DNA from: Octopus sinensis
Lineage: Eukaryota
Length of the DNA stretch: 64,000 nucleotides
Reading direction: 5' to 3'
Assembly: GCF_006345805.1 (NCBI RefSeq)
Contig: NC_043005.1
Location: 35,030,001 to 35,094,000, forward strand
Below the pieces are notes generated by a model that saw nothing but the letters and a program-made list of their open reading frames with translations, was not told the DNA's origin and ran no database searches. Position numbers and translations under genes: made by a program. Numbering within the stretch: the first letter of the stretch is position 1; every line of letters starts with the position of its first letter. Positions 5,746-53,574 of this stretch are shown piece by piece.

Positions 5746-5792
5746 AGATTAGAATTAGTGGAAATAAATGGAAGATGAAAAATGTTACTTAC

Positions 5793-6729: not shown

Positions 6730-7229
6730 CTGCAAAATCAAAAAAACAAAAAACATAAAGCAATATATAAATTATTTATAAATATAACTGAAAGATTGGT
6801 CGATTGTTATGGAAATTAAACACACAGACCAAACAATGAAAATCACATATATATAGTAGGCACAGGAGTGGCTGTGTGGTAAGTAGCTTGCTTACCAGCC
6901 ACATAGTTCCAGGTTTAGTCCCACTGCATGGCACCTTGTGTAGGTGTCTTCTGCTATAGCCTCAAGCTGCCCAAATCCCTGTGAGACAGAAACTGAAAGA
7001 AGCCCGTTGTGTATATATATATGTGTGTGTGTGTGTTTGTCCATCCAACATTGCTTGACAACTGATGCTGGTGTGTTTACGTCCCCGTAACTTAGCAGTT
7101 TGGCAAGAGACCGATAGAATAAGTACTAGGCTTACAAAGAAAAAGTCCTGGGGTCGATTTGGTAGACTAAAAGTGGTGCTCCAGCATGGCTGCAGTCAAA
7201 ATGACTGAAACAAATAAACAAATAAAAGA

Positions 7230-8262: not shown

Positions 8263-8339
8263 CATGTATGTATGTGTGTATGTACATACGTACGTATGTA
8301 TGTATGTATGTATATATATATATTTATATATATAGTGTA

Positions 8340-9306
8340 CTGTTCCATGATGGTAAGATCAGCAAAAAAAAAAAACACAATAAACACAATATTTGTTTTT
8401 ATGTGCTACTATTAGTTTCATGTACTGAGAACATGCCAAATAGTGTCTTATAACATGTCATGTGTACCACTACAATCATCAGACACTGCTCACATGGCAT
8501 AATGAACTAAAAATGAGACAAGTGATAAAGTGAGAAAAGGTGAGAAGGAAGTATATATAAAAGGTGGAAGATTGAAAAACCAGAAAATAAAAAAGAAATC
8601 AGAAATAAACAAAAAAGGATAATAAGAATTATTTCCCTTAGACCGTAAACTATAATGCTGAAAAGATTGTCGCTGAGAGCTTAAACCCTACACAATTCAG
8701 TGAGGAAAGTACTTTCCAATTCATCAACAGGAACTTAAGCATATGCTTACAACCGCTGAAAATTTTGGATCTAGAGTTCAGCAGTGAGTCACAGTTTTTA
8801 AATCTGAGTGTTTTCAGCTACACATAGCTTACATTTTTTTGATTTGTAAACCTAAGATGTGGATTTTCCAACTATTTTCCACTTTATCATGTGTGGTGCA
8901 GCGTTTGATTTCAAAACCCATACATGATTAGCCAACTTAGTAGCTATACTTTTGTGTCAGTGTCAGAAGGAAGATATGTTGGTTAGCATAGTGATTTTTA
9001 AAGTTGCCTTCACATAGTCTGATGTAGTTCTTCTTATCTGGTTGTGTTATCATCTAGCATTGCTGTAACCTCTGCCTCATATATGCTGGTCAGGTAGACA
9101 GGTTCCTGGGTCTCAACAGTTACGACTGAGAGTAGGCTCTTGGTGTTGATCTTGTGTAATGATACTCTTCATATAAGGGCAGCAGTTATATCGTAATTTC
9201 ACTGAGTACCTGTTAAATATTTTCTTGTATCTGTGTACCTGTACTATTTGGCATGTTCTGAGCACATGAAACTAATAGTAGCACATAAAAACAAATATTG
9301 TGTTTA
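8340..9306 (-). mobile_element. 5'-truncated Penelope-like element (GIY-YIG remnant, HHR-bearing pLTR, inverted partial pLTR)
   Basis: Broken minus-strand frames at about 8860-9130 read like IYEAEV..KNYIRLCEGNFKNHYAN..SSF..TKLANHVWVLK..IKWKIV. 9244-9306 is the reverse complement of 8381-8443. Confidence 0.72.
8403..8486 (-). ncRNA. Type I hammerhead ribozyme in the 3' pLTR of a Penelope-like element
   Basis: gtgt CTGATGA t tgta...taca t GAAA ctaatag TA gcac: intact core, helix I gtgt/gcac, GUA cleavage triplet. Confidence 0.72.
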
Positions 9307-9439
9307 CTAAACAATATATATATACGTATATAGGTAGATAGGTAGATATAAGTGTGGGTTGGTATAAGGAATGACAAAAATATTCCTCAACAAATTCCAT
9401 CTGACCCAAGCAAGCATAAAAACTGGGCATTAAAACAAT

Positions 9440-23080: not shown

Positions 23081-24288
23081 AACTACACAATGACGAGAAC
23101 ACAAACACAAACTATACAAGGAAAATCTATGACATCTGTCTTTACTTCGTAAGCTTTTCCATTTACTAATTATACATACCAACCCATTGTGGTTTTGGAT
23201 TTTTTTACAATGTAACGGTAAATAGATATTTTCTTCACAACTTCAATCACTGTTCTTTCATCTTTACATAATGGCAATCAATAAAGAACCAGTCCTTACA
23301 AACTGATTATGACTCCGACGTTCCATACTATTGATTACAAATTGATGACCCCAGCATTACAAATTGGTGATCCCCACATTACAAATTGCTAACCCTGGCG
23401 TTACAAATTGGTGATCCCAATGTTGCACCATAACAGGCATCGATTACAAATTTATGACCCTACCATTACAACTATATTGGATAAAGTAATATTACATAAA
23501 TGATAGCAAGGTGGCAAGCTGGCAGAATAATTAGCACCTTATGCAGAATCTTAGTGACACTTCGTCTGTCTGCACATTATAAGTTCAAATTCTGTAGTGA
23601 TCGACTTTACCTTTCATTTCAGGGTTAATGAAATAAATACCAGTTGAGTACTGGGATCAATGTACGTGATTTAGCTCCTTCCCCAAGACTGATGGCTTTG
23701 TGCCAAAATTTGAAACCAATATTATATATATAATATCTGGACCTGGAGCTAAATAACTACAAAGCTACATAGACACAGACTGGTAAAGGAAACCATCATT
23801 ATGATAAATAGGTCAAATATTTAACAAAGATCTTCTTGTTTGAAGGTAATCTAAGATCAAATAGAATATTGAGAAGATGTAAAGACAATGTCACCTGATA
23901 TCTAATTAAAGGTAAATTTACCTTATTCCAGGTGGGTGGTTAACAAGAAAAGTATTGAGTTTAATGGATGTCATGCATGAATCAGATTCCAAATTCATTT
24001 TTGCATCTCTGACATGACAAGACAAGTAAAGGTCATTAATAAATTTTTAGTAACAATTTAATCACTAAGATTTACAAAATAGTTCTTGTTTATTATGAAG
24101 ATGCACTTACCTGGTGAAATGCACTTGATCTGGGACTGTTGAAACTGCAAGGAGGAGACATTCAAAAACACAAAGACTGTTAACTTCATTTAAGCATTTA
24201 TTACTTAATGTCAAAATTTTGTTGCATGAACTGCAACCTAGTTTGTGACACAGTTCCATTGTAACTGGCTTGAGACAAGACAGAGGTC

Positions 24289-24327
<39 letters not shown>

Positions 24328-24544
24328 GCAATAAGAAAATGGAGGGGATCAAGAGGTGGTACTCATCAACTTTTAGACATTATATTATGTCTATTTATTT
24401 ATTGGTATATAAATTAAGAGTAAAAAACTTTTTTTACCCTCACCCATTTATTATATTCAGTAGTGTAATTTCCACACACAACCCCCCCCCCCATATATAT
24501 ATATACATATATATATACTAGCTTAAAAGTGCGTGGATTTTAAG

Positions 24545-25095
24545 CCAGTTTAGAGCTTTTAAGCTACTGATCCCAAAGTACAGGATTCAAGCCTCTTCTC
24601 CTTATCTCCTCAAAGACATACATCATCTCGAAAGAGTCCAGAAGCTGGCTACCCGCATGGTTCTTGGTCTCAAGCATTTGTCTTATGAAGAAAGGCTGAA
24701 GACGCTTGACCTTTATTCTCTAGAAAAACAACGACTCCGTGCTGATCTCATTCTCGCTCACAACATCATAAGTGGAAAGTGAAACCTCTCAAAAGAGCTG
24801 TTTTTCACTCCTGCTCCAGAGCATCGGCTGCGGGGTCACTCCGAAAAGCTTTATCTGCGACGATTTCATCTCAATTGAAGGAGAAGGGGCTTTCTCCATC
24901 CGGATTGTGGATCCGTGGAATAAGTTGCCGGACAAGATAGTGAAGATGCCGACAACTGCTCGGTTCAAAGACTCTCTTGACCAGAAATGGCCTGAACTCT
25001 TTGCATAAACACCCTCCCTGTACATAACTCCATGTCCCCTTACATGGACTTGCTTTTGCTTTTTGAGCCAAAAAATTAACTTAACTTAACTTAAC
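24545..25095 (+). mobile_element. CR1-clade LINE 3' fragment (different family)
   Basis: YEERLKTLDLYSLEKQRLRADLI..RLRGHSEKL..FSIRIVDPWNKLP; (TTAAC)n tail. Confidence 0.78.
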
Positions 25096-25690
25096 TCTAA
25101 ATAGGAAAATCTGCAAACAGATCTCTGACTTGTTTTGGAGAATTTGTTACAGTTGGTTCCTCCAGAGTCATATCCCAATGATGATCATATCTGTCATAAA
25201 AAAATCACATTACAAAATTGCTGTAAATAATTGCTGGATTTTGTAATTAATTTCAATTATTCCCCAAATTTATTTCCAAGTTATAAAAATTGTTATAAAA
25301 AAAAATTCATCACAAAAAAAATCATGTAAAAAAAATCACTGAAAACAATTGTAATAATGAAAACTTAGGAATCCAAAATTTCAGGATTGTGGGTCCGGAT
25401 TTGGCCTGGAATATTTTAATTTACTCATAAAGTCGGCCAGATTCCAAAATGGTATGATATGTTGGGCTACAGCCTCTAAGAGTAAAGTTGAAAAAGTGTG
25501 ACACACTGACATACTGCCATTTGCATTTATTATATATATACAGTAAAAGCAATTAAGATTCAAGTGAGTTCTGTTGAATTCACATGAATGCGGTACTTAA
25601 CTTAGATGCACCAGAAATCTATATGGTATTAACCATAAGATAATGCGTGGTGATTATAAACAAGAAAAAAGCAACAAAAATGGATCAATA

Positions 25691-25780
25691 TTTCGGTACA
25701 ATTGTTTCGTACGAAGACCACCTTTATTAAGGTTGCAAATATTGCAGCAAATACAAGTGACCCGTACTCATCAGCCGAAA
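25691..25780 (-). ncRNA. Type I hammerhead ribozyme (left arm of palindrome A)
   Basis: Reverse complement of the + strand copy at 25932-26021. Confidence 0.85.
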
Positions 25781-25931
25781 AAACATCTGAGTTCTCGTAA
25801 CATCTAAGGGGCTGAGGCTACACTCCTGAAATATCAGGGATAGTTCTATAAAAATGATTTTTATAGAACTATCCCTGATGTTTCAGGAGTGTAGCCTCAG
25901 CCCCTTAGATGTTACGAGAACTCAGATGTTT

Positions 25932-26021
25932 TTTCGGCTGATGAGTACGGGTCACTTGTATTTGCTGCAATATTTGCAACCTTAATAAAGGTGGTCTTCG
26001 TACGAAACAATTGTACCGAAA
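25932..26021 (+). ncRNA. Type I hammerhead ribozyme (right arm of palindrome A)
   Basis: tttcgg CTGATGA gtacg...cgtac GAAA c aatt g TA ccgaaa: full core, palindromic helix III loop, predicted cleavage after A26015. Confidence 0.87.
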
Positions 26022-26053
26022 TATTGATCCATTTTTGTTGCTTTTTTTCTTAT

Positions 26054-26109
<56 letters not shown>

Positions 26110-26218
26110 TGTTTGTTTTTATGTTGTTATAATAAAGACAGTTTTACATTAGTCTGATGGGTTACTGTATGCTTTTGTAGAGTGCAAATTTATTATTCTT
26201 ATACAAGAATTTTGTTGA

Positions 26219-26261
26219 CAGTTACTTCAAAGTTTCATCCAGTTAAGCCATCATCAGACTA
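26219..26261 (-). ncRNA. Hammerhead-like motif, helix II decayed
   Basis: tagt CTGATGA tggcttaactggat GAAA ctttgaag TA actg. Confidence 0.55.
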
Positions 26262-26659
26262 TTCTGTTCTTACACGAGGCACAGGAGTGGCTGTGTGGTA
26301 AGTAGCTTGTTTACCAACCACATGGTTCTGGGTTTAGTCCCACTGCGTGGCACCTTGGGCAAGTGTCTTCTACTATAGCCTCGGGCTGACGGAAACTGAA
26401 AGAAGCCCGTCGTATATATGTATATATATATATGCGTGTGTGTGTTTGTGTGTCTGTGTTTGTCTCCCTAGCATTGCTTGACAACAGATGCTGGTATGTT
26501 TATGTCCCAGTTACTTAGCAGTTCAGCAAAAGAGACCGATAGAATAAGTACTGGGCTTACAAAAGAATAAGTCCTGGGGTCAAGTTGCTCGATTAAAGGT
26601 GGTGCTCCAGCATGGCAGCAGTCAAATGACTGAAACAAGTAAAAAAGTGAAAGAGAGTG

Positions 26660-27841
26660 CTTTTGTAACATTAACTGATAAACAGGAAAAAAATGCAGCA
26701 TCATCCAATACATTTCTCTATGAAAAACATACCAATACCCACGAAAAAAGTTACCTGAAAACTCTACAACACAAAGACAGAAAACTTTATAAAAATACTC
26801 AGGTGGAAAATTTACCATTATGAAAAAGACCAAAAAGAGAAATAGCGAACCAACAAATATGGATTTAAGGCAGTCAAATGTCAGCCTCCCAGCTCATTTG
26901 AAGATGACTTATTTGCACTGACTATGCAAATAAAATTCACCAAACAAACCAATAAATTGCAGAAAGAATTGAAACAGAAATCAACCACAAAAAAACCTCC
27001 CAAAACAAACAAACCCAAATCTATTTGTAAAATTGGACAAGACAAACAACTTCTACCAGATAAGTAGAATCTCTTATACCTGCATTCTTTGTAACATAAT
27101 CTCCAACGCATACAAAAAAAACAACAATAAAATATGCTGCTTTAAATAAAATAAACACCACAGCCAAAGAAATATTGAAATATCCACTAAACTTAAAATA
27201 GACAATAGAGTAGATACATTAACACCAAAATGCTCATATATAATGATGAAAGACTGCAAACCAAACTTCAATAGCAACAAAAAAAAAACCATAGACTAAT
27301 TCTCATCAAGAATAAAAATAAAATTAATATTACCTCTATGTAATAACACTTATGAAGTAATAGATTGGTTCAACAAAATCCTGAACAAAAATGGAAGCCA
27401 CTTCTTCCAGTTCAACTTAAAAGACTATTATGTGTTAAAAACAAAACCTTTCATTATAGCTGCTTTGAACTTCACAATAAACACCAAAATAGAAACAATA
27501 ATGCAAGCAAGAAAATTACTCCTCTTCCACAACAATGCTTGCTGGATTAAGAAAAACATTAAAGAACCACTTGATGTAAGCATGGGCTCAAAGGACTCAG
27601 CAGAGATAAGTGACACCATGGGTCTTGAGATGTTAGAAAAATTACGCAAAAATTTCCATACATCTCAGGTGGCCAATAGAGGGATTATGGATTACTCCTA
27701 CAAAGAAAATTCAATCCACAAAAAACTGATAAATCTACATCACCTCTTCAAAACATTGGGTTTCTCAATCACAGTAGAAACACAAAATCCAGGTCATGTG
27801 CCTATAGTAGAAAGGATTATTATGATTATAATTATTATTGT

Positions 27842-27879
<38 letters not shown>

Positions 27880-28700
27880 TTATTATTATTATTATTATAT
27901 AGAGATTAATATTATTATTATTATATAGAGATTATTATTATTATTATTATTAAATTATATCATATTTTAATTTTCATTTTCATACATGAATCATCATCAT
28001 CATCATCATCATCATTTAGCGTCCGTTTTCCATGCTAGCATGGGTTATATATAGATATTGATAAATAAAATTTATTTCTCACCAGATGGAGTATTTTTTT
28101 AGTGAACTTACCATCATGGAACAGTACATTATATATATATTTGTATATATCCACACACCCTCTATATCAGCCCCACTTTAGCAACTATCTATAATAGAAT
28201 TGGATGAAATTTTATAAACAAACACCAAAGAAACTCTATCTCCAGAAAGCAGGAAGTTTAAAATCTCTATATATCAATTAGATTGCTTATAGAACAATGA
28301 ACACCTGGAGAGAGAAACATAAGCATACAACCTCTACACAAATACTTTTATGAAAACCAAAGCACAAGAGAAACAATTGTCTATACTAAAATAGCCATGA
28401 CAAGCCTGACCCTAACAGATGAAAACAATAAATACCTTATATAACTACAAATAAAAATATGACCAACCTAAACTCACCACATACCTACATTCTTTTGCGA
28501 ATAATAGTTGACATACTCAATTACTTAGTGATTAAATACTGGACTTTTGTACCTTTGACTTTTGTACCTTTGATCTTTGACCAAAGCAAAAGGATTAAAT
28601 CCAATAATACCAAAAGCAACAAAAATACTGTCAAGCCTTGTGCCTACCTAACAAAAGAGAAACACCAAAGTTCTACATGCATAAATAAATTCTAAAGGAA
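26660..28700 (+). mobile_element. Decayed Penelope-like retroelement (RT and endonuclease remnants)
   Basis: ORF 27432-27902 has IMQARKLLLFHNNACWIKK...LDVSMGSKDSAEISDTMGL, like the PLE RT motif FDVTMGSxDGAE. It is preceded by FQFNLKDYY. Many stops and frameshifts; interrupted by microsatellites. Confidence 0.7.
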
Positions 28701-28986
28701 TATATAACTAACTTCAATTCATCACAGGGATTCAAGGGGCCACAGTTATTTTATGCCTTGCCAAAACAGCTGAGGGATCTTTATGAGTATGAGTAGATGT
28801 TTTCAAGACACAATTTGATTTCCTGAACCTATATCACAGTAAGAAACTCAAAAGAGGGCAGAAGTGTTGAACTCCCTCCTTCATCAAAAGCCAATCACAT
28901 AAGAATGGCCATTGAAAAGGTTATTACACTGGCAGTGCTCCAGCATGGCCACAGCCTTTGGGTTGAAACATATAATAAAAGAATAT

Positions 28987-29017
<31 letters not shown>

Positions 29018-29167
29018 CAAAAACCAATAAAGATTCAAGTTAATTTAAATGAATTTACTTGAATATGGTACCTAACTTAGATGCACCAAAAAAAAACTAT
29101 ACTGTTTTAACAATACAGTAATGTGGGGTGATTATAAGCGAGAAAGAAGCAACAAGAATGGATAGGT

Positions 29168-29252
29168 TTTTAGTACAATCGTTTCATACAAGGACAGGCT
29201 TTATTAAAAAAAATTACAGCATATAAACGTGTCCCGTACTCATCAGCTAAAA
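29168..29252 (-). ncRNA. Type I hammerhead ribozyme (left arm of palindrome B)
   Basis: Reverse complement of the copy at 29911-30001, with a small deletion in the helix II loop only. Confidence 0.8.
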
Positions 29253-29910
29253 TACATGTGAGTTCTCTAGACATCCTAGTGGTTGAGGCTATACTCATGA
29301 AGTAATGTAGATAATTAAGTAACATAAACAGATTTCCAAAGTTCATTAAAGTTCTTTAAAGATGATGTACAGTCTTATCACAGAATTTTAAAAAAGTTCT
29401 AATAGCATCACAGAGAAGGTGACCTAATCCATAGAGCACATATGAATTTCCAGAGATATGATGAGGGATTACATACTCACAGAAGACAAATTTATCCATT
29501 GTTAATCACAACGAGGTGGGTCTCAATTCCTGCTTATTAGCATTACAGAGAGGTTGAATTAATCCTTTGTATAGATGCACAAATTGTGCATCTATACAAG
29601 GATTAATTCAACCTCTCTGTAATGCTAATAAGCAGGAATTGAGACCCACCTCGTTGTGATTAACAATGGATAAATTTGTCTTCTGTGAGTATGTAATCCC
29701 TCATCATATCTCTGGAAATTCATATGTGCTCTATGGATTAGGTCACCTTCTCTGTGATGCTATTAGAACTTTTTAAATTCTGTGATAAGACTGTACATCA
29801 TCTTTAAAGAACTTTAATGAACTTTGGAAATCTGTTTATGTTACTTAATTATCTACATTACTTCATGAGTATAGCCTCAACCACTAGGATGTCTAGAGAA
29901 CTCACATGTA

Positions 29911-30001
29911 TTTTAGCTGATGAGTACGGGACACGTTTATATGCTGTAATTTTTACAACTTTTAATAAAGCCTGTCCTTGTATGAAACGATTGTACTAAA
30001 A
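29911..30001 (+). ncRNA. Type I hammerhead ribozyme (right arm of palindrome B)
   Basis: ttttag CTGATGA gtacgggac...gtccttgtat GAAA c gatt g TA ctaaaa; predicted cleavage after A29995. Confidence 0.83.
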
Positions 30002-30779
30002 ACCTATCCATTCTTGTTGCTTCTTTCTCGCGTATATATATATATATATATATAGTATGTATTGAGGTGTGAGGTCAACACTGTTAAACAATGAATAATT
30101 AAACCAAATATAGGAAAACTGAATACTCAAATTTGTAAAGAATTAAAAAAAAAATTTTAATTAGACAGTAGTAGTAGCCACAGCAGCAACAGCAAGAACA
30201 ACACCAAAGAATGCAAAATAGTCACATAGGATAATTAATTACATAGGGCAAGTTACCTGGTTTCCATAGCATATTAATGACTGAGATAACAACATCCTTC
30301 TTGAATGGGATGTCAAACTGTTCCAAGGTTACTCATTTACAGTTGAGAGGTGTGGAGTAATGTGAAATGAAGTGTTTTGCTCAAGATCATATTGCACTGC
30401 TTGTGTCAAGAACTGAAACCATGAGCTTGCAATTATGAGTGCAACAGACTAACCACTACACCAAGACATATCCAGGTATATATATTTTTTATTGCTCTGT
30501 CACCAGTTACATGGTTGACTATCAATACAAATGAATAGATAATGAAACTGAACTATTGGGAAATATTAATTTTCTCCTATAAATTTACATATTGATTTTT
30601 TTTCTGTAGATTTGAAAAGCTGATTGTGGTTTTCACCCAAAATAAAATAATACAAAAATCAATGAGGGACAGATACCCAGTTGCTCAACCTGCTAGAGAT
30701 CGCAACCAAATCTCCTTGAAATCACACTCTACTGTTTTAAAATTTGAAGGACACATTAAGCAATCTAGTTATCAATACT

Positions 30780-31290
30780 TTTTGGTTTTATTTGTTGAGT
30801 TAGGAGGAATGGGCAGCTTCCACGACTTTTGTAGGTCCTCCAAGAGTGGAGAGGTTGATACTGCTCATGTCACACTTAAAATCTTGAAGGTTAATCTGTG
30901 TGAAAGATATGAGCAGAGAGAAGATTAGAGAGGTCCCATGTTCAGGGACTGAAGGACTAGCAATAGGGGTTAGTGTGGGAAATGAGAGTGGGGTTGCAGA
31001 GATGAGTGGGGGAAGGGTGCCTTATTAGTGGATGTACATGTCCATCTAGCTCTAAGGAACAGAGGTCATAATAATAGTGATAGAAAAGATGGAGAGAGTG
31101 GAGGTAACATACCTTTGGGCCAGCAATTAGAATGTGTCCAGTAGTGATTTAATGCCAATCAGTCAAGGACTCTTCTCTTGAAGTGGTCCAGGATATCGGT
31201 GTGTGTGTAACAGCGACACTATTCCAGCGGTGGGGGCGTTAAAGCTACAGTATGAGCCTGACTTGAGCTTTGTAGGGAGTCAGTAATTGC
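30780..31290 (-). mobile_element. Old LINE RT 3' fragment (CR1/L2/Jockey-like)
   Basis: Minus strand YKAQVRLIL..HxWNS..LD..KR pattern; heavily decayed. Confidence 0.5.
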
Positions 31291-31492
31291 TGACAAAAGA
31301 TGGGATAGTCATGGCTGGAATTCCTTTGATTATTGGTCAACTCAGTCAGAGATAATTTGGGGTTAAACAACAGCAACAACAACAACAAATGCAACAAAGA
31401 TCAAACATGGACATCATATAATACAAAGGACATACTCATCACCAGACATTTCTCATCCTTCAACATTCTCTGATGCCCTGATTTATATGACA

Positions 31493-31524
<32 letters not shown>

Positions 31525-31527
31525 TTC

Positions 31528-31997
31528 TGAGTGAGAGAGCAGTGCATGCCATCAAAGTGACATGGGTACAAAATATATGATGCCCATTATACCCGTCATG
31601 ACTGCTCACCTGATAAGGGCACAGCAGACACATGCATCACAACCATGAGTATGTGACATGGTGATCTCATATGAAGATAAATAGTGCATGACCTTACAGG
31701 TGGTGCCCAGTTAGAATTTTCTTCAGGTTGAGTAGCCCATCCTGCTCAAAAGGTTCCTGAATAAGGTTTGTTTAAGGATGATGAACAAAACACCCATGTT
31801 TCTGGAAATGAATTATCCAAATCCTTAAAAATTCCTCACAACACATGGAACTGGTCAAGGTCAAGCAACTGTCAAGCAAATCTGTAGAATTGAGCAGAAT
31901 ATTTGTTGTAGCTTTTACACCAAGACAAAACATGTACATGATAACACTTCCAATCAGTTCAGGTCAGAAGCCATGACAACTGTGCATCGGGGCATTT
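31528..31997 (-). mobile_element. Non-coding repeat inserted in (TTA)n, probably a non-autonomous R4/Dong derivative
   Basis: Copies at 15170-15544 plus 16217-16372, 16949-17190 and, reversed, 55285-55400. Confidence 0.6.
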
Positions 31998-32014
31998 ATT
32001 ATTATCATTATTAT

Positions 32015-38289: not shown

Positions 38290-39222
38290 AAACACTAGAA
38301 ATATACAGAAAATAGACTTCATCAAATGCCAGGGAAGATACCTAGAAGTAGTTGATAGCTTTCATAATCTAGATGACCAAGTCAGCAGTGGTGGGGGATG
38401 CTCTGAGAGCATAGTTGCTAGAGTAAGAATAGGTTGGGCAAAGTTCAGAGAGTTTCTACCTTTGTTGGCAACAAAAAGCCTCTTCCTCAGCGTGAAAGGC
38501 AGATTGCATTATGCCTGTGTGTGAAGAGAAATGCTACATGGCAGTGAAACAAGGGCTGTGATGGCAGAGGACATGCAAAAGCTTGAAAGAAACGAATCTA
38601 GTACACTCCATTAAATGTGCAATGTCAGTGTGAATCTACAGCTGAGTGTTAATGTTTCAAGAGAAAAATTGGGCATAAGAGGCCTCATATATGGTGTGCA
38701 AGAGCAATGAGACCAACCCATATCTCCCAGATCTAGCATATGGCATCATTGCATCAATGAGAGATAGCTGAGAGGTTTGTTATGATTGTATGGTCATGTG
38801 ATGCATAAGAATGAGGACAGCTGCATACAGAAGTGCTGATCTCTAACTGTGGGGGAACCTTAGAAGAGATAGACCCAGGAAGACATGAAACGAGGTGGTG
38901 AAGCATGATCTTTGAATGTGGGGTCTCATGGAGGCGATGACAAGTGATCATGTCCTTTGGTGATTTGCTGTGTTAGAGACTTGTCAAGCCAAGTGAAATC
39001 ATAGTTGTGGTTGGTGCTGGTGACATGTAAAAGCACTCATACCAGTGACATGCAAAAAGGCACCCACTACACTCCTGGAGTGGTTGGTGTTAGGAAGAAC
39101 ATCCAGCTGTAGGAATCAAGCCAAAATCAGACTGGAACTTGGTGCAGCTCTCTGGCATACCAGTTCCAGTCAAGCTGTCTAACCCATGCCAGCATGGAAA
39201 GCAGGTGTTAAATAATGATAAT

Positions 39223-39225
<3 letters not shown>
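38290..39225 (+). mobile_element. RTE-clade LINE 3' fragment (same family)
   Basis: Nucleotide similarity to 4600-5160; ends in the acccatgccagcatggaaagc..ttaaa(tga)n tail. Confidence 0.78.
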
Positions 39226-39256
<31 letters not shown>

Positions 39257-40615
39257 TACGTTTGCATTTGTGTGAATGTGTTGCATACACATATAGAATG
39301 TATACATACACAAAAAAATGTATGCATGTGTGTGTGTAGTGAAAGAGAGAGAAAGATACACAGAGGCTTAGGTGACACCTAATTATATATATTAGGTATA
39401 TATATATATATTAGAGGCAGAGTAAGAACGTGTGTGGGAAAATTTAAGGGAGCTGTTATCTTTCCTGGTTATGAAAGGTTTCTCTTTGTGTTTAAAGAAG
39501 AGATTGGCTGATGCTTTCAGATGAGGTTCGATGTTGTATGGTAATAAAACCTGGAAAATAAATGTGGGAGATGAGCAAAGGTTGGAAAGAAACAAGGCAA
39601 GCATCCTTCCCTTGTAAAACAGCACAGATTAAGTTGACAAAATATACAGGTACACAAAAAATCTGCTGTTGTGTGCAAGAAAGAAGACTGTAAAGGCAGC
39701 ATGGAGAAGAGACTGATGTGGAGGATAAGAATTGAGTAAAAAAAACTGTCAAGAAATCCAAATGAAAGAAATTTGTGGAAGAGGAATATCATGGAAGACA
39801 TAGATGTGTTGAAGGCTGGTCTGAAGAACTTAAAAGATCTTAAAAAATAGCAATATGCTGTGTTGTGTGTATGTGTATGCACACACGCATGCACGCACTC
39901 ATGCATGCACGCACACACACACACACAAACACATGAAATAATTTGTCTTTAAGAGTAGGACATGAAGTAGAAAAACTACAATTAATAGCATGTAAATACT
40001 GGGTTCTATATATATATGTGTGTGTGTATGTGTGTATATATATATATATAGATATATATATGTAAGTGCATGTATGCATGTATGTATGAATGAATGGATT
40101 TGCTTGTTTTTTTATGACAATCTAAATAGAAAACTCAATATCTTTTGGATAAAATACTAAATATTTATTTAGATGAATGCTAGCAGTTATTTATATATCT
40201 AAATGTGCATGAAATATGCAAATAAATATAAACTGTATAGGTGCTAGGGAGTTTGACTAACTTAGCTTACAACTGCTTCTGCAATAAGATGCAGTGGACT
40301 CATAGTTGAGTGCCTGAATAATACCTTATAGCTTCATCAGAGCCTCAATTTTGAAGTACAATTTTACACTTTGGCTCCAATGAAGCTTTAAGATGTCACT
40401 CAGGCACTCAACTATGAGTTTACTGCATCTTATAGCAAAAAGAGCTGTAAGTTAATGAAGTTCATAAAATAATTGCTTATTCCTTTGTCATTTCATTTTC
40501 TTATTATCACTCTATACTTGTCTAACACTTTGTTCTGAAGCATATATATATTGGGCTCTACACCAGGTCATTAGTCTTGCAATGCCTAAGCAATATACAC
40601 ACATTACATATATAT

Positions 40616-40669
<54 letters not shown>

Positions 40670-42018
40670 TACGTTTGCATTTGTGTGAATGTGTTGCATA
40701 CACATATAGAATGTATACATACACAAAAAAATGTATGCATGTGTGTGTGTAGTGAAAGAGAGAGAAAGATACACAGAGGCTTAGGTGACACCTAATTATA
40801 TATATTAGGTATATATATATATATTAGAGGCAGAGTAAGAACGTGTGTGGGAAAATTTAAGGGAGCTGTTATCTTTCCTGGTTATGAAAGGTTTCTCTTT
40901 GTGTTTAAAGAAGAGATTGGCTGATGCTTTCAGATGAGGTTCGATGTTGTATGGTAATAAAACCTGGAAAATAAATGTGGGAGATGAGCAAAGGTTGGAA
41001 AGAAACAAGGCAAGCATCCTTCCCTTGTAAAACAGCACAGATTAAGTTGACAAAATATACAGGTACACAAAAAATCTGCTGTTGTGTGCAAGAAAGAAGA
41101 CTGTAAAGGCAGCATGGAGAAGAGACTGATGTGGAGGATAAGAATTGAGTAAAAAAAACTGTCAAGAAATCCAAATGAAAGAAATTTGTGGAAGAGGAAT
41201 ATCATGGAAGACATAGATGTGTTGAAGGCTGGTCTGAAGAACTTAAAAGATCTTAAGAAATAGCAATATGCTGTGTTGTGTGTATGTGTATGCACACACG
41301 CATGCACACACTCATGCATGCACGCACACACACACACACAAACACATGAAATAATTTGTCTTTAAGAGTAGGACATGAAGTAGAAAAACTACAATTAATA
41401 GCATGTAAATAATGGGTTCTATATATATATGTGTGTGTGTATGTGTGTATATATATATATATATAGATATATATATGTAAGTGCATGTATGCATGTATGT
41501 ATGAATGAATGGATTTGCTTGTTTTTTTATGACAATCTAAATAAAAAACTCAATATCTTTTGGATAAAATACTAATATTTATTTAGATGAATGCTAGCAG
41601 TTATTTATATATCTAAATGTGCATGAAATATGCAAATAAATATAAACTGTATAGGTGCTAGGGAGTTTGACTAACTTAGCTTACAACTGCTTCTGCAATA
41701 AGATGCAGTGGACTCATAGTTGAGTGCCTGAATAATACCTTATAGCTTCATCAGAGCCTCAATTTTGAAGTACAATTTTACACTTTGGCTCCAATGAAGC
41801 TTTAAGATGTCACTCAGGCACTCAACTATGAGTTTACTGCATCTTATAGCAAAAAGAGCTGTAAGTTAATGAAGTTCATAAAATAATTGCTTATTCCTTT
41901 CTCATTTCATTTTCTTATTATCACTCTATACTTGTCTAACACTTTGTTCTGAAGCATATATATATTGGGCTCTACACCAGGTCATTAGTCTTGCAATGCC
42001 TAAGCAATATACACACAT

Positions 42019-42610: not shown

Positions 42611-42909
42611 ATTAATTAATGAAATTCCAACTTAGTCTGATTTCCAAGTTTTATTTTTTGCAATTTTTATAATTTTACAATATTTAAATAAACTAGTACT
42701 TTCATGCATCATGTAATCATCAGGTTTATGTAGTGACAAGCATGTTCCACAATTGACATCTGCTAATTGTGGAACACGATTGTCACTACATAAACCTGAT
42801 GATTGCATAACACGTGAAAGTACTAGGTTTATTTCAATATTGTAAAATTGTAAAAATTGCAAATAATAAAAGGGGAAAATCAGACTAATTTGAAATTTCA
42901 TTGATTAAT
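42611..42909. mobile_element. About 300 bp fold-back with an HHR in each arm
   Basis: About 140 bp imperfect arms around the 10-nt loop gacatctgct. Confidence 0.8.
42688..42729 (-). ncRNA. Minimal hammerhead ribozyme in a fold-back element
   Basis: ataaac CTGATGA t tacatgatgca t GAAA gtac TA gtttat; one mismatch in helix II; a more decayed mirror copy is at 42790-42832 (+). Confidence 0.68.
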
Positions 42910-44568: not shown

Positions 44569-44834
44569 TCACACTCTTGTTTCTGAGTTGACATCACCCA
44601 TTATAAAAGGCTGCTGGAACTCTTGACGTGCTTTGTCCAATTTAGGTATATCATTGTAGTATGTAACCCCATTACCATCTTTCCAAGAAAAATTGTTGCC
44701 AACACCAGGAATGGAAAGATTTCTATTGTTCTGTTCAAAATATTCAGGATTTTCTACAGAAGCCATCGTGGTAGCTCCGAGAATGTCTTTCATTAATTCA
44801 TCATTTGTTGGTTCATAATTATTCTTGTAGGAAT
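44569..44834 (-). CDS. EGFR: EGFR final coding exon
   Basis: tacag|(D)SYKNNYEP...SVENPEYF...TYYNDIP...NSETRV stop; contains NPxY, YxN and a C-terminal class I PDZ motif. Confidence 0.9.
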
Positions 44835-44942
44835 CTGTAAAACAATAGCAACAACAATTAATGAGGTTTTTACTTTTAGAGTTAATTAATATTTAATTAA
44901 TAATAAATCTCTGAACGAGGTATAAACAGTAACTGCACAACA

Positions 44943-45099
44943 ATGTGAGGTATACTTGCCATCTCAATATGCAAATACCATAAGAGCACAGAAAGTGTGC
45001 CTAAAGCCAGCTGGAGATGATGTTCTCCAGGGGCTACAAGCTACAGTAATACCCACCCTTAGTGGTTAGCCATATTGAGATGGCAAGTATACCTCACAT
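44943..45099. mobile_element. 157 bp MITE-like element with perfect 29 bp terminal inverted repeats
   Basis: atgtgaggtatacttgccatctcaatatg (44943-44971) / catattgagatggcaagtatacctcacat (45071-45099). Confidence 0.7.
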
Positions 45100-46112
45100 A
45101 ATATTTAATTGTGTAGGTATTTAATGTTGTGAATTAACTTAATTAACAAATAAATAAGTTGTTATTAGTGTTAAAAGTTTATCTCAATCACTAATTATAT
45201 CATCATAAAGGGGGTGAAATATTTAATTCATTATAAACCACCAGCACTGCTGCCATCATTGTTGTTTGAACATTCTCACTTTTCCCTGCTTACAGGAGTT
45301 TGATGGAATGTATTGTGACAGAGGGAGACTGACTACATCTGGATTCCCTTCCTGTCAACAACCCTCACCTGTTTCAAAGTCATGATCAGACGTTTTTTCA
45401 CAGAAGATTGGAAATGAAAGACATCATTTTTATGATGTTCACACTTATTGGTTTGAATAGAGTTGTAGTATCGCTGCTGCCGCCGCCACTACCATCACCA
45501 CTGCCACTGCCGCTGCCACCACCACCACCACTAACATCACCACCATCATTATCATCACCACCACCACCTACATCATTTAAAATCTGCTTTCCATGCTGGC
45601 ATGGGTTGGACAGTTTGACGGAAACTGAGCAGCTTAAGGGCTGTTCAGGCTCCCTCTCTGTTTTGGCATGGTTTCTATAGCTGGATGCACTTCCTAACAT
45701 TAACCACTTTACAGAGTGTACTGGGTGCTTTTACACAGCACTGGTACAGGTGCCTTTTCCATGGCACCAGCACTTACAAGCCCACAAGATTAGGGATGTT
45801 CAGCTAGAGAGGGTTGCAAGGGATAAGCTGGTATGCAAGAGCAACCACGCTCTTACTTAGCTTGGCATGTATTTATAAGCACAGCAAACCACAAGGAGTT
45901 TCAGTCCCTTGTCATCCCCCCTGTGAGTCTCAACATTTGTAGATCTTTTCTCACCCTTGTGTTCCATGTCTTCCTTGGTCTATCCCTTCCTCATTACTTT
46001 TCCATGCTAGCATAGGTCAGATGGAATTTGTTGGAGCAAATTTTCGACAACCAGATGTTCTTTTTGTCATCAGCCCTCATCTATTTTCAAACAAGGTAAG
46101 TTTGTTTTCTAG

Positions 46113-46520
46113 TAATAATGAAATTATTGTATACAGTGCTCAGGTGCACCACAACTTGTCAGACAGTGCGTATAAAGTATATGCAGTAATGTACAAATGT
46201 CTGGAAAGCGAATAATGTATGAGTCAGATACATGCTTGTGTGTGTATGGAGGGGAGAAAATCAGGTGTAGTGTTGGCAAATCTCAGAAAGAATGGAAGTT
46301 TTGAAGGATGCAGTGCTCCGACAACTAACAACTGATGCCGGCAGTTTGTTCCATGCTTCAGCAACTCTCAGCATAAAAAAAAAAGGTTTCCAAAAGTCAT
46401 GGGAGCTGTGCTGTTTTCTGACTCTGTAAATATGTCCATGGGTGTTAGACGGGTGGAGTTTGAAAAGGTGCTCAGAGTTATTGTTTGTAAGATGGTTAAT
46501 AATTTTATGGGTGGCCAAAC
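46113..46520 (-). mobile_element. CR1-clade LINE 3' fragment in the last EGFR intron
   Basis: Near-identical to 15555-15940. Confidence 0.82.
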
Positions 46521-46974
46521 ATATTTAATATGTAAGACTAAGAAAATGAACAATATTGTTTAAATGATGATAATGCCTATATGATGTCATGACAAGGGTA
46601 TACACACACACAGACGATGAAGATGATGATATCTGGAGGACTGAGATGATGGAAGACACTACTGGGGTACTTGTTGGACGAAGACCTAAAAATAATACAT
46701 AGCTTTGGGCTACATGTATATAAGTTAGATGGAAAGTTCTGAGGTTAAATTTCTTCCTTGGTCCCACATTCATCTCTGTTCAGAATGACCAAAGCTACAA
46801 ATTTCCTCCTCCTCCTCTGCCACCACCACCACCACCCTCTCCTAATCATCTCTTAGTTTCTCTCTCTCATCCCCTCTCTCCTTCTCCCTCCCTGTTTCTG
46901 CTACATATCAAATTATTGTTACTATCCTTTCAGCTCCCATTTACAAACACAATACAAATAGAGCAACCACATAC

Positions 46975-47139
46975 CTGTGCTACCATTAATATCGATGTAG
47001 GCTGCTGGATTCACAGACTTTGGTTGAAGGTAATCATCTTCATCAACAGGTAACTGACGTGAGGAATGGAATGGTGCAGTAGGAGCCAGTTTGGGTTGAA
47101 TTCCCATAATGTGGTTTGGATCAAGTTCAATGATATCAT
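46975..47139 (-). CDS. EGFR: EGFR C-terminal tail exon 3
   Basis: tgtag|(D)DIIELDPNHIMG...LPVDEDDYLQP...AYIDINGST+G|GTATGT; 165 nt, phase 1 at both ends. Confidence 0.88.
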
Positions 47140-47609
47140 CTACAATAAAAGATAAATTTTTATCACATGCCAGATATACACAATAATACCACAGAACATA
47201 TACATGTGTGTGTGTGTGTGTGTGTGTATGTGTGTATGTGCATGAGTGTGTGTGTGTTGATCAAGTTAGTCTTTTGTTAATCTGAGTTTTATCTGTTGAT
47301 ACACAGGATTGGCAGTCAAGTAATGAACTTGTCTGAAGACCTAGTCTACCCATGGATGAAACCGAGATAAGCAAGAGATTGACTTGGCTAAAAAAAAAAT
47401 ATCATTAACCTCTGCTATGGTACCAAGTACTCTTTCCTCCAATAGTCAACACTAAACAGATATATATATCTATACCAACCTAGTTATCTATCAATCTATC
47501 TATGCCACCCCCATGCACTCATATGTATGTGTATATTATAGGTATGTACCCACTCTTGTATGGGTGTACCTCCTCTGATTTTCATATTTAATTTAGTTTG
47601 TACTTCATA

Positions 47610-47736
47610 ATCTCTGAAGAGGCCTTGAGATATTTTTGTAAGTGTCTCATTTATAACTACATATTAACCTATCACACATGGCTAATATGAGCATAATGAG
47701 GCACCCATATCTGCATGGCTGAAACAGCTGTAAGAT
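47610..47736 (+). ncRNA. Type I hammerhead ribozyme with long helix II insertion (EGFR intron, antisense)
   Basis: atct CTGAAGA ggcc...ggct GAAA c agct g TA agat: intact core, palindromic CAGCTG helix III. Confidence 0.78.
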
Positions 47737-47943
47737 GTAGTTTATATTTATATCTGTATTTATTTATATTCACTTATACATACTGTACTTATTGTATCAT
47801 ATTACTCATTGATGTACATTGTTTTGTTCTATATTATTATGTTTGACTTTAATGTTCATATGTAGTGGTTTAATAAATTATGTGATTGGGTATTATCTGG
47901 TAGTTGATTATTGATTTAGATGTATTTCTCCATTTTCTTATTT

Positions 47944-47976
<33 letters not shown>

Positions 47977-48923
47977 TGCTATACTCAAAAAGACCTGTAC
48001 TCCGGAGAAGAAGTGTTATGACTGGTCCCTCTGATAGTGTAAAGCACTCGTGGTGGTGTCATGTAAAAGTGTCCATGTGATACCACATAAAAGCACCCAG
48101 TACACTTTGTAAAGTGGTTGCATTAAGAAGGGCATCCAGCCATAGAAACCATGCCAAATCAGACTGGAGTCTGGTGCAGCTCCCAAGCTCTGGTCAAACT
48201 GTCCAACCATGCCAGCATAGACAATGGACATAAGATGATGTTGATGCTGATGTCAAATAAAATTTTACACTGGCTTCTACATGTTTCCAGACATTATTTA
48301 AGGTGCAAAAAGGATTATTTATTTGAAACTAAGGGTTGTTGTTGCTTCACCCCAATGTGACCTTTTTCAAAGTGGAAGATGTGGTTTGGGAGATATTTTA
48401 AGAAGATTTGACCGTTATTTCTAATAGGCAGATATGTAGGGGGTCCCTTTTATAAAAAATTAGGGCAATTATATATTTTCTCACAAGAGTATATAGTGTT
48501 AATCCTTAAAGTAACTTGGCTATGGCTATGTTATCTGGTTCACTGGAAACTCAGGATCAGAGAAAAGTTTTCTTTTTTCTGAGCAATGACCATGCTGGAG
48601 CACTGGCCTTAATACTTATTTCTTTATTACCCACAAGGGGCTAAACATAGAGGGGACAAACATAGGTATTAAGTCGATTACATCGACCCCAGTGCGCAAC
48701 TGGTACTTAATTTATCGACCCCAAAAGGATGAAAGGCAAAGTCGACCTCGGTGGAATTTGAACTCGCAACGTTACGGCAGCCGAAATACCACTAAGCATT
48801 TCGTCCGACGTGCTAACGATTCTGCCAGCTCGCCGCATTAATACTGATGACTAAAAGCAAAAAAAGAGTAAACAAAAAAATTGATGTGAATATAGCTTAT
48901 ATATATTTATACTGTATACATAC

Positions 48924-49143
48924 CTCTGTCTCTTGAATATTTAATAGGATCGGTACTATAACGAGAATTAATGCTGTCTTCACGGCCCCTGCGATGGGGA
49001 TCCATCTGTCGTTGATGTCGAGCGGCTGCTGCTGATTCAAGATGGCCATAACGTTTTTCTCGACGTCTGTTATCGAGTTCATTTTGTTTTTCAGTGCCGA
49101 CATCTGGGTGAAAGACATCTTCTGGAGAATTTCCTGAAGCTAT
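48924..49143 (-). CDS. EGFR: EGFR C-terminal tail exon 2
   Basis: tacag|IASGNSPEDVF...SRYSTDPIKYSRDR+G|GTATGT; 220 nt; RYSTDP resembles the EGFR Cbl site RYSSDP. Confidence 0.88.
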
Positions 49144-49691
49144 CTGTAAAAATGAATTGGACAAACATTATGAATTAGAAACGTGTACGTATACTTATAT
49201 GTGTAACTAGTAGGAATATACATATGTGAAGGTCATTAGGGTGTTGTACATATTGATGATTGCGGTGGTACATTGTGTTCTTGAGCTAAACGCTTTATTT
49301 CATGTTGCTTCAGTCTACTTAGATATAAAGAAGTAATCTTGCAATGAACTCCTGTCCCATTCAGGAGGAATGTCATGTTCTTGACTACTTAAATGACATG
49401 GCAAATGGGTAACCAGCCCGATGAGCTGAAGACAGTGAAGTGCAATGAACTTAATTTACATGTGTGTATATATGTGTGTGTGTGTGTGTGCATGCGTAAT
49501 GTAGAACCAAGAAGACTAAAGACATTCCCTTCCCCCCCAACAACCTGATTCTGTTCCTACCATTTCTTGTAACTTCATTTTTCCCTTTTTTTCCCAAGAA
49601 TTATCTTTGAAAGAATAAACATTAGGTAATTTACACTCTCTAAAATGTAATCTTGTGAAATGCTATTTCAGAATAAACTTTAAATTCTTAC

Positions 49692-49868
49692 CTTTGTGCC
49701 ATCATTATTATTGTCTCCATTGCCATCTGCTGCTCCCTGAGATGACTGTGGCATCAAATAATCTTCTGCTTCTACAAGTTCTTCAGGACCTTCAGTCACT
49801 AAACTTAAACTCTGGAGTAAATCCCTTTTGTCGTATGTTAAACTTGGAAGTCGCATCAGTTTATCTCC
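49692..49868 (-). CDS. EGFR: EGFR C-terminal tail exon 1
   Basis: ttcag|GDKLMRLPS...LVEAEDYLMPQ...GTK|GTAAGA; 177 nt; LVEAEDYLMPQ resembles the ErbB VVDADEYLIPQ motif. Confidence 0.9.
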
Positions 49869-51567
49869 CTGAAAGAGCATACAAGATAATGTGAAATACA
49901 CAACTTCCCATGGCACAAAACCAAATTTCAACCTGTTTTATAGTAATCAAAATGAAAATCTTTCATCAAAATTTCCCACTGATTTAAATTTGAAACACCA
50001 GCTTAGTAATGGCAAATTTATTTTCATAATAAATTCTTCATTACTTTCAAAATTCACTAAAACAAAGCTACTATATTTCAACAAAAATATGGTAAGAAGA
50101 GGGTTAATTATGAATCTATTAAAACTCCTTCTCTGAAAATATAACCACGCGTCACACCTAAATCTTCAGAAATGTCAAAACCGAACAATTTCTTTGTTGA
50201 CTTATCATGTCTATCAAGAATTCTCCAGAAAAATTAACTGATAACAAATAATTAAATTAATAGAGTTTCATTGAAATATAATTAATTATTGGGGTTATTC
50301 ACATTCATATCTCTTTAAAGATAATCTCATATAATAACAGATACCAGCCATATACTTGTTTCTTATTTCAGTTATTGCAGATGAAGCTTTGGTATGAATA
50401 CCACACAAATATCACACATTGCTTTTAAACTAAATAAATAAATAAAAATTAATTACAAGGAAAAGATCTTGTGACAGATTTGTAAAGAAGCAGAGCTGTT
50501 AATATCTTTGAAGATAAACTGGAAAGCTCAGCTATCTGTTACAACAATAACACGCACTTTAATAGACCACCCAGTGTCTGGATGGCTTTATTACTATCTT
50601 CACGTTTACTTTCCAAACTTTCATTACATTTGAAAGTTTAGGACTTCAATTTTTATCACTAAATAGATTTTTTTCCTTTTTAATAAATGAGTATTTGTTT
50701 ATTTCACTAATTAATATAGCTTTGATAATTTGATGTGCATATGACTGAGAAGAATGCTCAAGATGAGAATCAATTGAAGACGTATTCTATATCTTTTCCA
50801 AATTTATCAGTTTCTGGATAATTTTACTTGTTTATGTGAATCTCATAATTTAATATTAAGTAAATAGTCAAGAGAGAGGCTGGTTGTGGATATAAACTAG
50901 ATATTCCCTCTTGACTTTAACTATGTACGTTAGTGTATGCACGAGAAGGTGACTGATTAATTCTCTTTCTCCTTTGATAGATAAACAGATAGATTGGGAG
51001 ATATATAGCTAGCTAGCAAGACATATAGATAAAAATTAAACAGATTTCCTATGCATTTAAGGTACAAAGAAAATTACTTTGAATACGACCAGACATTTCA
51101 ATGTTACAATACTATTTATTTATCAATGTTCGAATCATGATCATCATTGTCATCATCATCATCATCATCATTTTAATGTACACCTTTCAGTGCTGACTTA
51201 GGTAAAATGAAAATTGTCCAGACAGATTTTCTATTCATAGATGCTCTTTCTGTCATTAATTCTCACCTGTTTCCAGGAGTGTGTGTGTGTGTATGTATGT
51301 ATGTATGTATATATTTATAGATGTACATACATACACACACACACACACATATATATATATATTATTATGGCTGCCCCCTCGTTATCGAGTATGGCCATTG
51401 CATGAAGCTTAACTGTTACTGGTGCTGTGATCGAAGGTGACTTTTTGGCCCAGCTAAAGATCTACAATGTCTTGTACAAAATAGGCAACTAAGACCTTTA
51501 CTGGTAATAGCCGGCTATATATATATATATATATAGCCGGCTATTACCATATATTACTATATATATA

Positions 51568-51796
51568 GGGCGGCGAGCTGGCAGAAACGTTAGCACGCCG
51601 GGCGAAATGCTTAGCCGTATTTCGTCTGCCGTTAAGTGTTCTGGGTTCAAAATCCGCCGAGGTCGACTTTGCCTTTCATCCTTTCGGGGTCGATAAATTA
51701 AGTACCAGTTACGCACTGGGGTCGATGTAATCGACTTAATCCCTTTGTCTGTCCTTGTTCGTCCCTTCTATGTTTAGCCCCTTGTGGGCAGTAAAG

Positions 51797-51797
<1 letters not shown>
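51568..51797 (+). mobile_element. Young (CpG-rich) copy of the ~210 bp SINE
   Basis: ggcggcgagctggcagaaacgttagc...; similar copy at 48615-48838 (-). Confidence 0.82.
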
Positions 51798-51842
<45 letters not shown>

Positions 51843-52414
51843 ATATATATATATACATATATACATATATCTATATACATTAATGTGTAATTGTGTCTGT
51901 CTGTGTGTCTGTTTGGGGTTACTCCAACTCCTCTCACACCGTCCAACAGATTTTAATGATTTTTGATACACAGGTAGAACACATGCCCTGAAGTTCAAAT
52001 AAGGTAGGAATTTTTCGAAAACTCGATAATGCGCAGTTGGCATCGATTTTTGTGAGCTCAATCGGGCATTTGAATGGAAATTCCCATAACGATATTATTT
52101 TTCCTGCAGTTTTTGCATTTTTTTGTCTGATTTTGCTGATAATCGATGAGTGAGCGAGGCTCCTGGCAGTGAGTTGATGTCAATACATGGCATTGACAAA
52201 AAATCGATAATTGCACCTGAGCAGTGGTTTTATAAAATCAATAGGTTTATTGTGTGCAAATACCCATAGAGATTTTATTTTTGACTGTAACTTTTACATT
52301 TTTTATCCAATTTTAATGAAATTTGAAATGTAGGTAAATTTTGTGGTGGGGGAGATGGTAAAGATATTTAGTTGATTCAAAAGGGCTTGAAAAGGGCACA
52401 AATGCAAATAAGCA

Positions 52415-52738
52415 TTGCTTGCTCATGAAATTAATCTGCAAGTGGCTGAGTACTCCACAGACACATGTACCCTTAACGTAGTTCTTGGGGAGATTCAGCA
52501 TGACACAGAGTGTGACAAGACTGGCCCTTTGAAATACAGGTACAACAGAAACAGGAAGAAAGAGTGAAAGTTGTGGTGAACGAATACAGCAGGGTTCGCC
52601 ACCACCCCCTGCCGGAGCCTTGTGCAGATTTAGGTGTTTTTGCTCAATAAACACTCACAACGCCCGGTCTGAGAATCAAAACTGTGATCCTATGACCATG
52701 AGTCTGCTCCCCTAACCACTGGGCCATTGCACCTTCAC
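52415..52738 (-). mobile_element. tRNA-derived SINE, third family
   Basis: Head tggcccagtggttagg..; related pieces at 60835-61003 (-), 3495-3795 (+) and 1345-1665 (-). Confidence 0.72.
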
Positions 52739-52825
52739 ATAGATACATATATATATATATATATAATATATATATATATATTATATGCATATATTTATAA
52801 ATAATATATATGCATATATTTATAA

Positions 52826-52872
<47 letters not shown>

Positions 52873-53476: not shown

Positions 53477-53574
53477 TTCAATGACCAAATAACGTCCAGG
53501 ATCCCTTGACATTTTACCAAATTCAACCTCTAATTCTTTAAAAGAGGGTCTGCTTTCAGCATCCAGCATCCAGC
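53477..53574 (-). CDS. EGFR: EGFR kinase end exon
   Basis: tgcag|(C)[32 protein letters not shown]|GTAAGT; 98 nt. Confidence 0.95.

Follow-up and report, generated by a model that had tools for sequence, protein, structure and literature searches.

A head-to-head pair of repeat copies in an octopus (TA)n tract, probably a 5'-truncated Penelope-like element insertion

The window analysed here, a stretch of 64,000 nucleotides of the Octopus sinensis contig NC_043005.1 (positions 35,030,001 to 35,094,000, forward strand; assembly GCF_006345805.1), carries a cephalotocin receptor 2-like GPCR gene and the exons of a receptor tyrosine kinase. The GPCR coding stretch 5785-6771 shares 94% identity with a protein of Octopus bimaculoides, and cephalotocin receptor 2-like entries follow among the next matches; the kinase gene (44569-62870) is presumably EGFR-like, judging by its motifs. 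Between the GPCR gene and the last coding stretch of the kinase gene, which ends at 44569, lies the palindrome that is our main subject, hereafter B. It probably falls outside coding genes, and that end at 44569 led us to abandon the idea that it sits in a kinase-gene intron. The same window holds a homologous palindrome (A) and three further insertions of the Penelope-like retroelement (PLE) type that belong to other families (C, D and E). Elsewhere in it, about 1.4 kb at 39090-41549 stand twice in tandem with identical translations (39090-40121 and 40512-41549), as a duplication or an assembly artefact, and a short inverted repeat at 2159-2288 surrounds a CTGATGA...GAAA pattern (2238-2214, minus strand) that is perhaps a decayed hammerhead element. 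The features to which the text refers are the following.

3947-6771, minus strand: cephalotocin receptor 2-like GPCR gene
8337-9316, minus strand: element E, a Hydra-clade PLE remnant with TA flanks
25541-26051, no strand assigned: homologous palindrome A, with its tail at 25541-25661 and its centre at 25856
about 25662-25855 and 25857-26051: the arms of A, flanked by (TA)5 and (TA)26
25938-26015 (plus strand) and 25774-25697 (minus strand): hammerhead cores of A
26693-27700, plus strand: reverse transcriptase (RT) remnant between A and B, a broken N-terminal half of Hydra type with a DKT motif
28996-29017, no strand assigned: (TA)11 target run on the left side of B, read from the sequence
29018-29137, minus strand: structured one-sided 3' tail of the left copy, 120 nt
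29138-29582, minus strand: left arm of B, a 5'-truncated copy with the element sense on the minus strand
29168-29252, minus strand: type I hammerhead motif of the left arm
29583, no strand assigned: unpaired centre base, the fold point
29584-30031, plus strand: right arm of B, an inverted copy without a tail that ends at the inner end point
29911-30001, plus strand: predicted type I hammerhead motif of the right arm
29911-29916 with 29996-30001, and 29917-29923, plus strand: helix I and CTGATGA of that motif
29924-29983 and 29984-29987, plus strand: its 60-nt helix II domain and GAAA
29987-29994, plus strand: its self-complementary helix III, with the predicted cut after 29995
30033-30054, no strand assigned: (TA)11 target run on the right side of B, read from the sequence
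44569-62870, minus strand: receptor tyrosine kinase exons

In palindrome B, two copies of an octopus repeat of high copy number meet head to head within (TA)n. Its left arm (29138-29582, 445 nt) and right arm (29584-30031, 448 nt) align locally with 446 matches, nine gap columns and one mismatch over 456 columns. That sole mismatch (29137/30032) lies immediately outside the arms, which are themselves free of substitutions and differ by three indels (6, 2 and 1 nt), each at a homopolymer run; the centre is a single unpaired base, 29583. The initial annotation had assigned the whole of 29018-30031 to a palindrome with 445-bp arms: the arms stand as described, whereas 29018-29137 is no arm but an unmirrored tail of 120 nt, which in the left copy separates the arm from (TA)11, the right copy abutting its own (TA)11 directly. 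A TATA at 29133-29136 marks the inner end point, and three hairpins are common to the tails of A and B. The TA runs on the two sides (28996-29017 and 30033-30054) both count 11 units, in which a target duplication would look the same as a plain run. Directly to the left of these repeats, 28824-28975 is a piece of another, abundant short repeat.

Part of this stretch is contained in 20 of 24 sequencing runs, which come from nine studies. Contigs of four runs (X1, X4 and X5, which are DNA, and X10, taken to be RNA by guess, none of the 24 being listed as RNA) were placed on 28780-29600 at 80% likeness, the four placing 2591, 2386, 1813 and 170 records. In X1 the depth summed over the element reaches 0.8-8.6 x 10^5, a figure that is not a copy number, against 40-60 for single flank contigs. 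We infer that B's family is very abundant in octopus contig sets. The ratio of arm to tail depth is 2.2 in X1, 10.9 in X4, 1.8 in X5 and 1.6 in X10; a value near 2 in three runs fits two arms with one tail, and conservation could also shape it. Among the contigs listed, nine from X5, one of the four runs, show (TA)n immediately ahead of 29133; the outer tail end lay in a repeat that contig placement skipped. Three X10 contigs extend past 29582 with different letters, which makes the centre of B the 5' truncation point of a longer element. None of the four runs yielded a contig joint across the centre of B, palindromes being hard for contigs to cross. As a separate observation, the X10 letters after 29583 could close a 5-bp hairpin with the bases before the centre, a possible native fold-back site.

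Palindrome A had been recognised in the initial annotation as a diverged homologue of B, in agreement with an identity of 76% over 292 columns (E 2e-54), and it has the same build, including a centre of 1 nt. The two were also rightly described as folding back at different internal points, 195 nt from the arm end in A and 445 nt in B, and as stopping at an equivalent outer position: the strict arm ends are offset by 2 nt, and each adjoins a TATA internal to the element (25655-25658; 29133-29136). On the element sense strand both tails finish in TG, followed by (TA)n. The defined end point of integration that had been proposed on this basis is borne out both by this agreement to within 2 nt and by the nine X5 contigs that join (TA)n before 29133; it is the boundary published for the Penelope 'tail' (PMC8557442, PMC11167929). 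Compared with shuffles, the tails fold with z-scores of -3.6 (B) and -2.6 (A), and they have 19 pairs in common, one of them changed on both sides. It can also be observed, post hoc, that a TATA (29570-29573; 25847-25850) precedes each fold point by 9-13 nt, which may be chance. BLAST of A and B probes against the window retrieved no family members besides these two.

The head-to-head PLE layout is routine in the octopus genome, given that C, D and E occur in the same window. Element E serves as an in-window control, since in it a B-like layout, with a one-sided tail of about 45 nt, a short inverted copy of 64 nt (9243-9306) and TA flanks, stands on a PLE frame: its C-terminal endonuclease region (9235-8801) matches Hydra-type PLE proteins (domain E 2e-17). 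It bears no real similarity to A and B (scores 32 and 24). A rearranged hammerhead lies near 8480-8390; its candidacy as a second hammerhead with a long helix II was dropped, as the fold is an internal rearrangement. The arms of palindrome C (42611-42909) are 86% alike around a spacer of about 10 nt, each with what appears by eye to be a short hammerhead-like motif with a Hydra-style core. In palindrome D (53699-54179), a member of another family, a hammerhead-like motif was seen by eye in the left arm, and the right arm has the motif deleted and a tail of about 30 nt. The RT remnant between A and B gave 570 matches in a HMMER search of a protein library and none among the 334 candidates of a word-indexed protein search; its assignment to Naiad was dropped, as it resembles Hydra-1_Obim by eye. 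Some 400 nt beyond it, a 46-nt piece (28094-28139) matches the tail end of element E at 91%.

Each arm of B contains one type I hammerhead motif, oriented outwards. A scan of the window for such motifs returned five matches, namely the four arms of A and B and a loose one of 119 nt at 47614, against one match in total in 30 block-shuffled windows, so that the four motifs of A and B are not due to chance; the motifs of C, D and E escaped the scan and were recognised by eye. The helix II domain of the A and B hammerheads measures 54-60 nt, the left-arm copy of B having a 6-nt deletion at the helix II tip. Folded by itself, this domain forms a long stem (z -1.55 in B and -2.41 in A), and the whole motifs fold no better than their shuffles (z -0.05 to -0.81). 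Helix III consists of two pairs and a self-complementary loop, and occurs as ACAATTGT in A, ACGATTGT in B and ACGATCGT, the last corresponding to 29177 A>G in ten contigs of set X1; all three variants are self-complementary. The octamers self-pair with -6.4 (A) and -5.8 (B) kcal/mol and the monomer helix III costs 0.3-1.0 kcal/mol, a balance that fits the dimer-type PLE hammerheads (PMC4209133). Pair 10.1-11.1, usually conserved, is G.U in B and also in the Penelope-13_HM entry of a published table (PMC8557442 supplement). At the Rfam gathering score the window gave no matches; at E<=10 the 19 matches on 29000-30050 included no hammerhead, and the top ones, microRNA models on the centre hairpin, lay below gathering and were rejected. 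Pattern scans of metagenomes returned no match for the hammerhead and none for the tail motif.

The case for selection on the ribozyme structure was first made on the paired differences in helix I, tttcgg/ccgaaa in A against ttttag/ctaaaa in B. These recur in the register fixed by the core, together with the identity of CTGATGA, GAAAC and GTA in the two palindromes and the continued pairing of helix II, of which the first seven pairs are kept in both. MAFFT inserts a 1-nt gap in helix I, and the reading as two paired substitutions thus depends on the ungapped register. Over 15 core-defined pairs (six in helix I, five in helix II and four in helix III), 7 of the 30 sites differ between A and B, every pair holds and two are changed on both sides; for pairing to be kept in all seven changes, P is about 0.001 under even mutation with the observed share of transitions. 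Six of the seven changes fall at CpGs of A, and seven of the eight CpGs of A are not CpG in B, the conversion of CG to TA on both strands being the expected product of deamination. When CpGs are weighted by 5 or 10, P becomes 0.022 or 0.056 starting from A and 0.009 or 0.015 starting from B, and the unchanged 11-nt core has a P of 0.07 at 21% divergence. Since all four helix I changes sit at CpGs, the covariation in this helix is weak when taken alone. The better evidence is a non-CpG series at the helix II tip, which reads C-G in A, U.G in contigs and U-A in B, the U.G intermediate coming from loose ends at 29209 (X4, X5) and insertion rows at 29208 (X1). A change from U.G to A-U in the middle of helix II was left uncounted, the pairing registers of A and B being shifted there by one base. 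Hence the claim of selection is plausible for the family and likely to hold, with less support from helix I than had been thought, and two sequences do not suffice as proof; such selection would have acted on the source elements and not at the locus of B.

The combination of an inverted 5'-truncated copy, a one-sided tail, a hammerhead and a (TA)n target is the published PLE signature, and B is very probably a PLE-type insertion. That it stems from a 5'-truncated PLE inserted in a single event, by the mechanism discussed below, also appears likely to us. Specifically, B presents the copy head to head with its inverted counterpart, the tail on one side between two fixed ends, and, near the 3' end, a type I hammerhead motif whose helix III is self-complementary, and its family shows dispersed copies inserted at (TA)n or AT-rich sites. 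The inverted insertions described for EN+ PLEs (PMC8557442, PMC3846280) likewise have an inverted 5'-truncated copy at the 5' end, a palindromic junction, a tail at one end and a bias for (TA)n. They differ in their tails of 30-40 nt (PMC8557442) against 120 nt in B, in junction palindromes of 18 and 38 bp, interpreted as self-priming (PMC3846280), against two copies truncated at one and the same base over 445 nt, and in that the B fragment has no reading frame. The dimer-type metazoan pLTR hammerheads (PMC4209133) share with B the CUGAUGA/GAAA/UH core, the 6-bp helix I, the short self-complementary helix III, covarying families and opposite-strand pairs at distances of 100-700 bp.

Hydra-clade PLEs, including Hydra-1_Obim of Octopus bimaculoides, resemble B in the (TA)n target, one copy end site and a canonical hammerhead near the 3' end; in contrast to the 54-60 nt of B, helix II is short in all 26 of their published rows (PMC8557442 supplement). 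The same supplement lists a long loop II, as in B, for PLE-X1_sMoe. The helix II domain of B also exceeds the spacers of 7-17 and 35-50 nt in the descriptors of PMC8557442, and the shape of its hammerhead escapes these short-helix descriptors as well as Rfam at both thresholds. Hydra-clade proteins have no match in B: a profile of 13 Hydra-type proteins detected no significant coding trace in its six frames (best score -2.4), and tblastn of 150 proteins found nothing in B at E<=1. No frame for RT and GIY-YIG endonuclease lies within its 445 nt, the parent element continuing past the fold point, and a Hydra-type RT/EN frame upstream of the hammerhead, with DKT motif and CxCX5C linker, is absent from B; parts of such a frame are found in the separate remnants 26693-27700 and 8801-9235. 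As for the Naiad clade, which is marked by an N-terminal EN frame and the lack of a canonical hammerhead, B has a complete motif, and the 3' end of Naiad_Obim is unlike B by eye; that of Naiad_Ovul is labelled 'HHR_half_core'. Neither A nor B contains direct pseudo-LTRs from partial tandems. Non-LTR retrozymes (10.64898/2026.07.22.740005) are, like B, non-coding, equipped with a type I hammerhead and probably derived from PLEs; they are defined by head-to-tail tandems, whereas B is a single head-to-head pair, and 24000-32000 holds no head-to-tail hammerhead array. The PAc Poseidon element of Anolis (PMC11167929) shares with B two fixed 3' ends bounding a structured tail and an AT-rich target; in B the start sites are 120 nt apart and both beside TATA, and no reading frame begins in the hammerhead.

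In the literature we found no description of B's family, which Repbase, Dfam or the supplement of the retrozyme preprint may contain. The one source on octopus PLEs that came to light is PMC8557442, and six long hammerhead motifs of B had no match in its supplement, where splits at line ends may hide matches. What is new in B is an unassigned family, a long helix II and a tail three to four times as long as published ones, along with a hint of A-to-I editing; the layout itself has already been described in other animals and is likely an ordinary PLE footprint.

The geometry and the two ends of B are observed, and from them and the PLE literature we infer every enzymatic step of its formation. 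The GIY-YIG endonuclease would have nicked both strands of (TA)n. With the left nick as primer at the distal tail end, the RT would next have copied the RNA as far as 29582, where it met a break or stopped, and this cDNA would now be the plus strand of 29018-29582. On balance, we incline to the view that the cDNA end then folded back and was copied on itself, a step that explains why, in A as in B, the two arms reach the same base and leave a centre of 1 nt. A centre of 1 nt is too small for a priming loop, and the fold-back step thus needs later trimming or a template jump. The right-hand (TA)n end may then have caught the returning strand at the internal TATA, probably via a short second cDNA primed at the second start site; the chances for and against this step appear to us even, and it would account for a second arm without a tail. 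In the source element, the hammerhead is predicted to cleave as a dimer via its self-complementary helix III. At B, in contrast, RNA of either strand is predicted to form a single duplex (about -800 kcal/mol) in which the hammerhead core is fully paired. This burial of the core, together with the single sense motif per transcript, suggests that the ribozyme would be silent there, and the read-through RNA would form a 445-bp hairpin, likely an ADAR substrate.

The main rival is twin priming of the same PLE-type element, in which the two arms would be independent cDNAs made from both nicked strands at two start sites, each reaching the same RNA 5' end, and joined head to head without a fold-back. 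In the anole PLE, cleavage and extension affect both strands of the target, two RT start sites corresponding to the two tail ends are used in vitro and a protein dimer is predicted (PMC11167929), and tails are known at either insertion end (PMC8557442). The very unequal arms of element E, of about 900 and 64 nt, point the same way, and a 1-nt centre is compatible with an untemplated base; this centre and the published extension of two strands favour twin priming on one RNA end. The base-exact symmetry in both members, on the other hand, favours fold-back, being rare under independent truncation unless the RNA end was shared, and, judged by title, no literature on inverted PLE copies arising by twin priming was found. 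We thus regard twin priming as doubtful, if a serious contender. Against the preferred course stands the anole finding that priming in vitro proceeds without target homology, which speaks against a pairing role for the TATA; the anole hammerhead cleaves only with the protein and is dispensable for insertion in vitro (PMC11167929).

The other explanations fare far worse. A post-insertion origin of the palindrome, through fold-back repair at a break in a single copy and subsequent homogenisation by conversion, is very unlikely: it would suit arms that lack substitutions though A and B differ by 21%, but such repair would not halt at the same TATA in A, B and nine contigs, nor would it place (TA)n right behind the second arm. 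Still less credible is that the fold of B is an assembly or library chimera, in keeping with its perfect symmetry, its indels at homopolymers alone and the lack of a contig joint at the centre, since the mirror ends at the TATA of the element with unique flank beyond, and A, C, D and E have the same layout with diverged arms. Least credible of all is a MITE or foldback DNA transposon inserting at TA, which long inverted arms, TA flanks and very high depth might recall, but which is contradicted by the one-sided tail of 120 nt that leaves the left repeat non-terminal, by centres that vary among copies and beyond which other copies continue, and by a hammerhead motif in each arm.

The contigs contain a hint, which we treat as a lead only, that RNA of the family undergoes A-to-I editing. 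In X10, the run taken to be RNA by guess, 55 places with A>G or T>C stand against 22 with C>T or G>A, compared with 18/32, 15/33 and 18/32 in the DNA runs X1, X4 and X5 (Fisher P 1e-4 against X1 and 2e-5 against X4), these counts being taken over 28780-29600 with the adjacent repeat 28824-28975 included, from different animals and from contigs of any copy. At 29474, T>C is seen in 15 X10 contigs, all three DNA runs lacking it. Few animals are as strongly hyper-edited as the octopus, and ADAR is known to act on palindromic repeats (PMC5625713); B is a possible source of ADAR substrate in a heavily edited animal. A bolder scenario, which we hold to be improbable, is that an undescribed and abundant PLE-derived family primes its RT in the fashion of telomerase at two UAUA sites 120 nt apart that pair with nicked (TA)n, that fold-back of the cDNA yields perfect palindromes of hundreds of bp, and that their copies supply a large share of the dsRNA behind octopus hyper-editing. 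The layout of B is textbook for PLEs, so that the finding is ordinary and its value is that of test material. For the question of how PLEs form their inverted copies and tails (PMC8557442, PMC11167929), a young family that is very rich in copies, long-tailed and sharp in its fold points would allow simple counts to discriminate between fold-back and twin priming.
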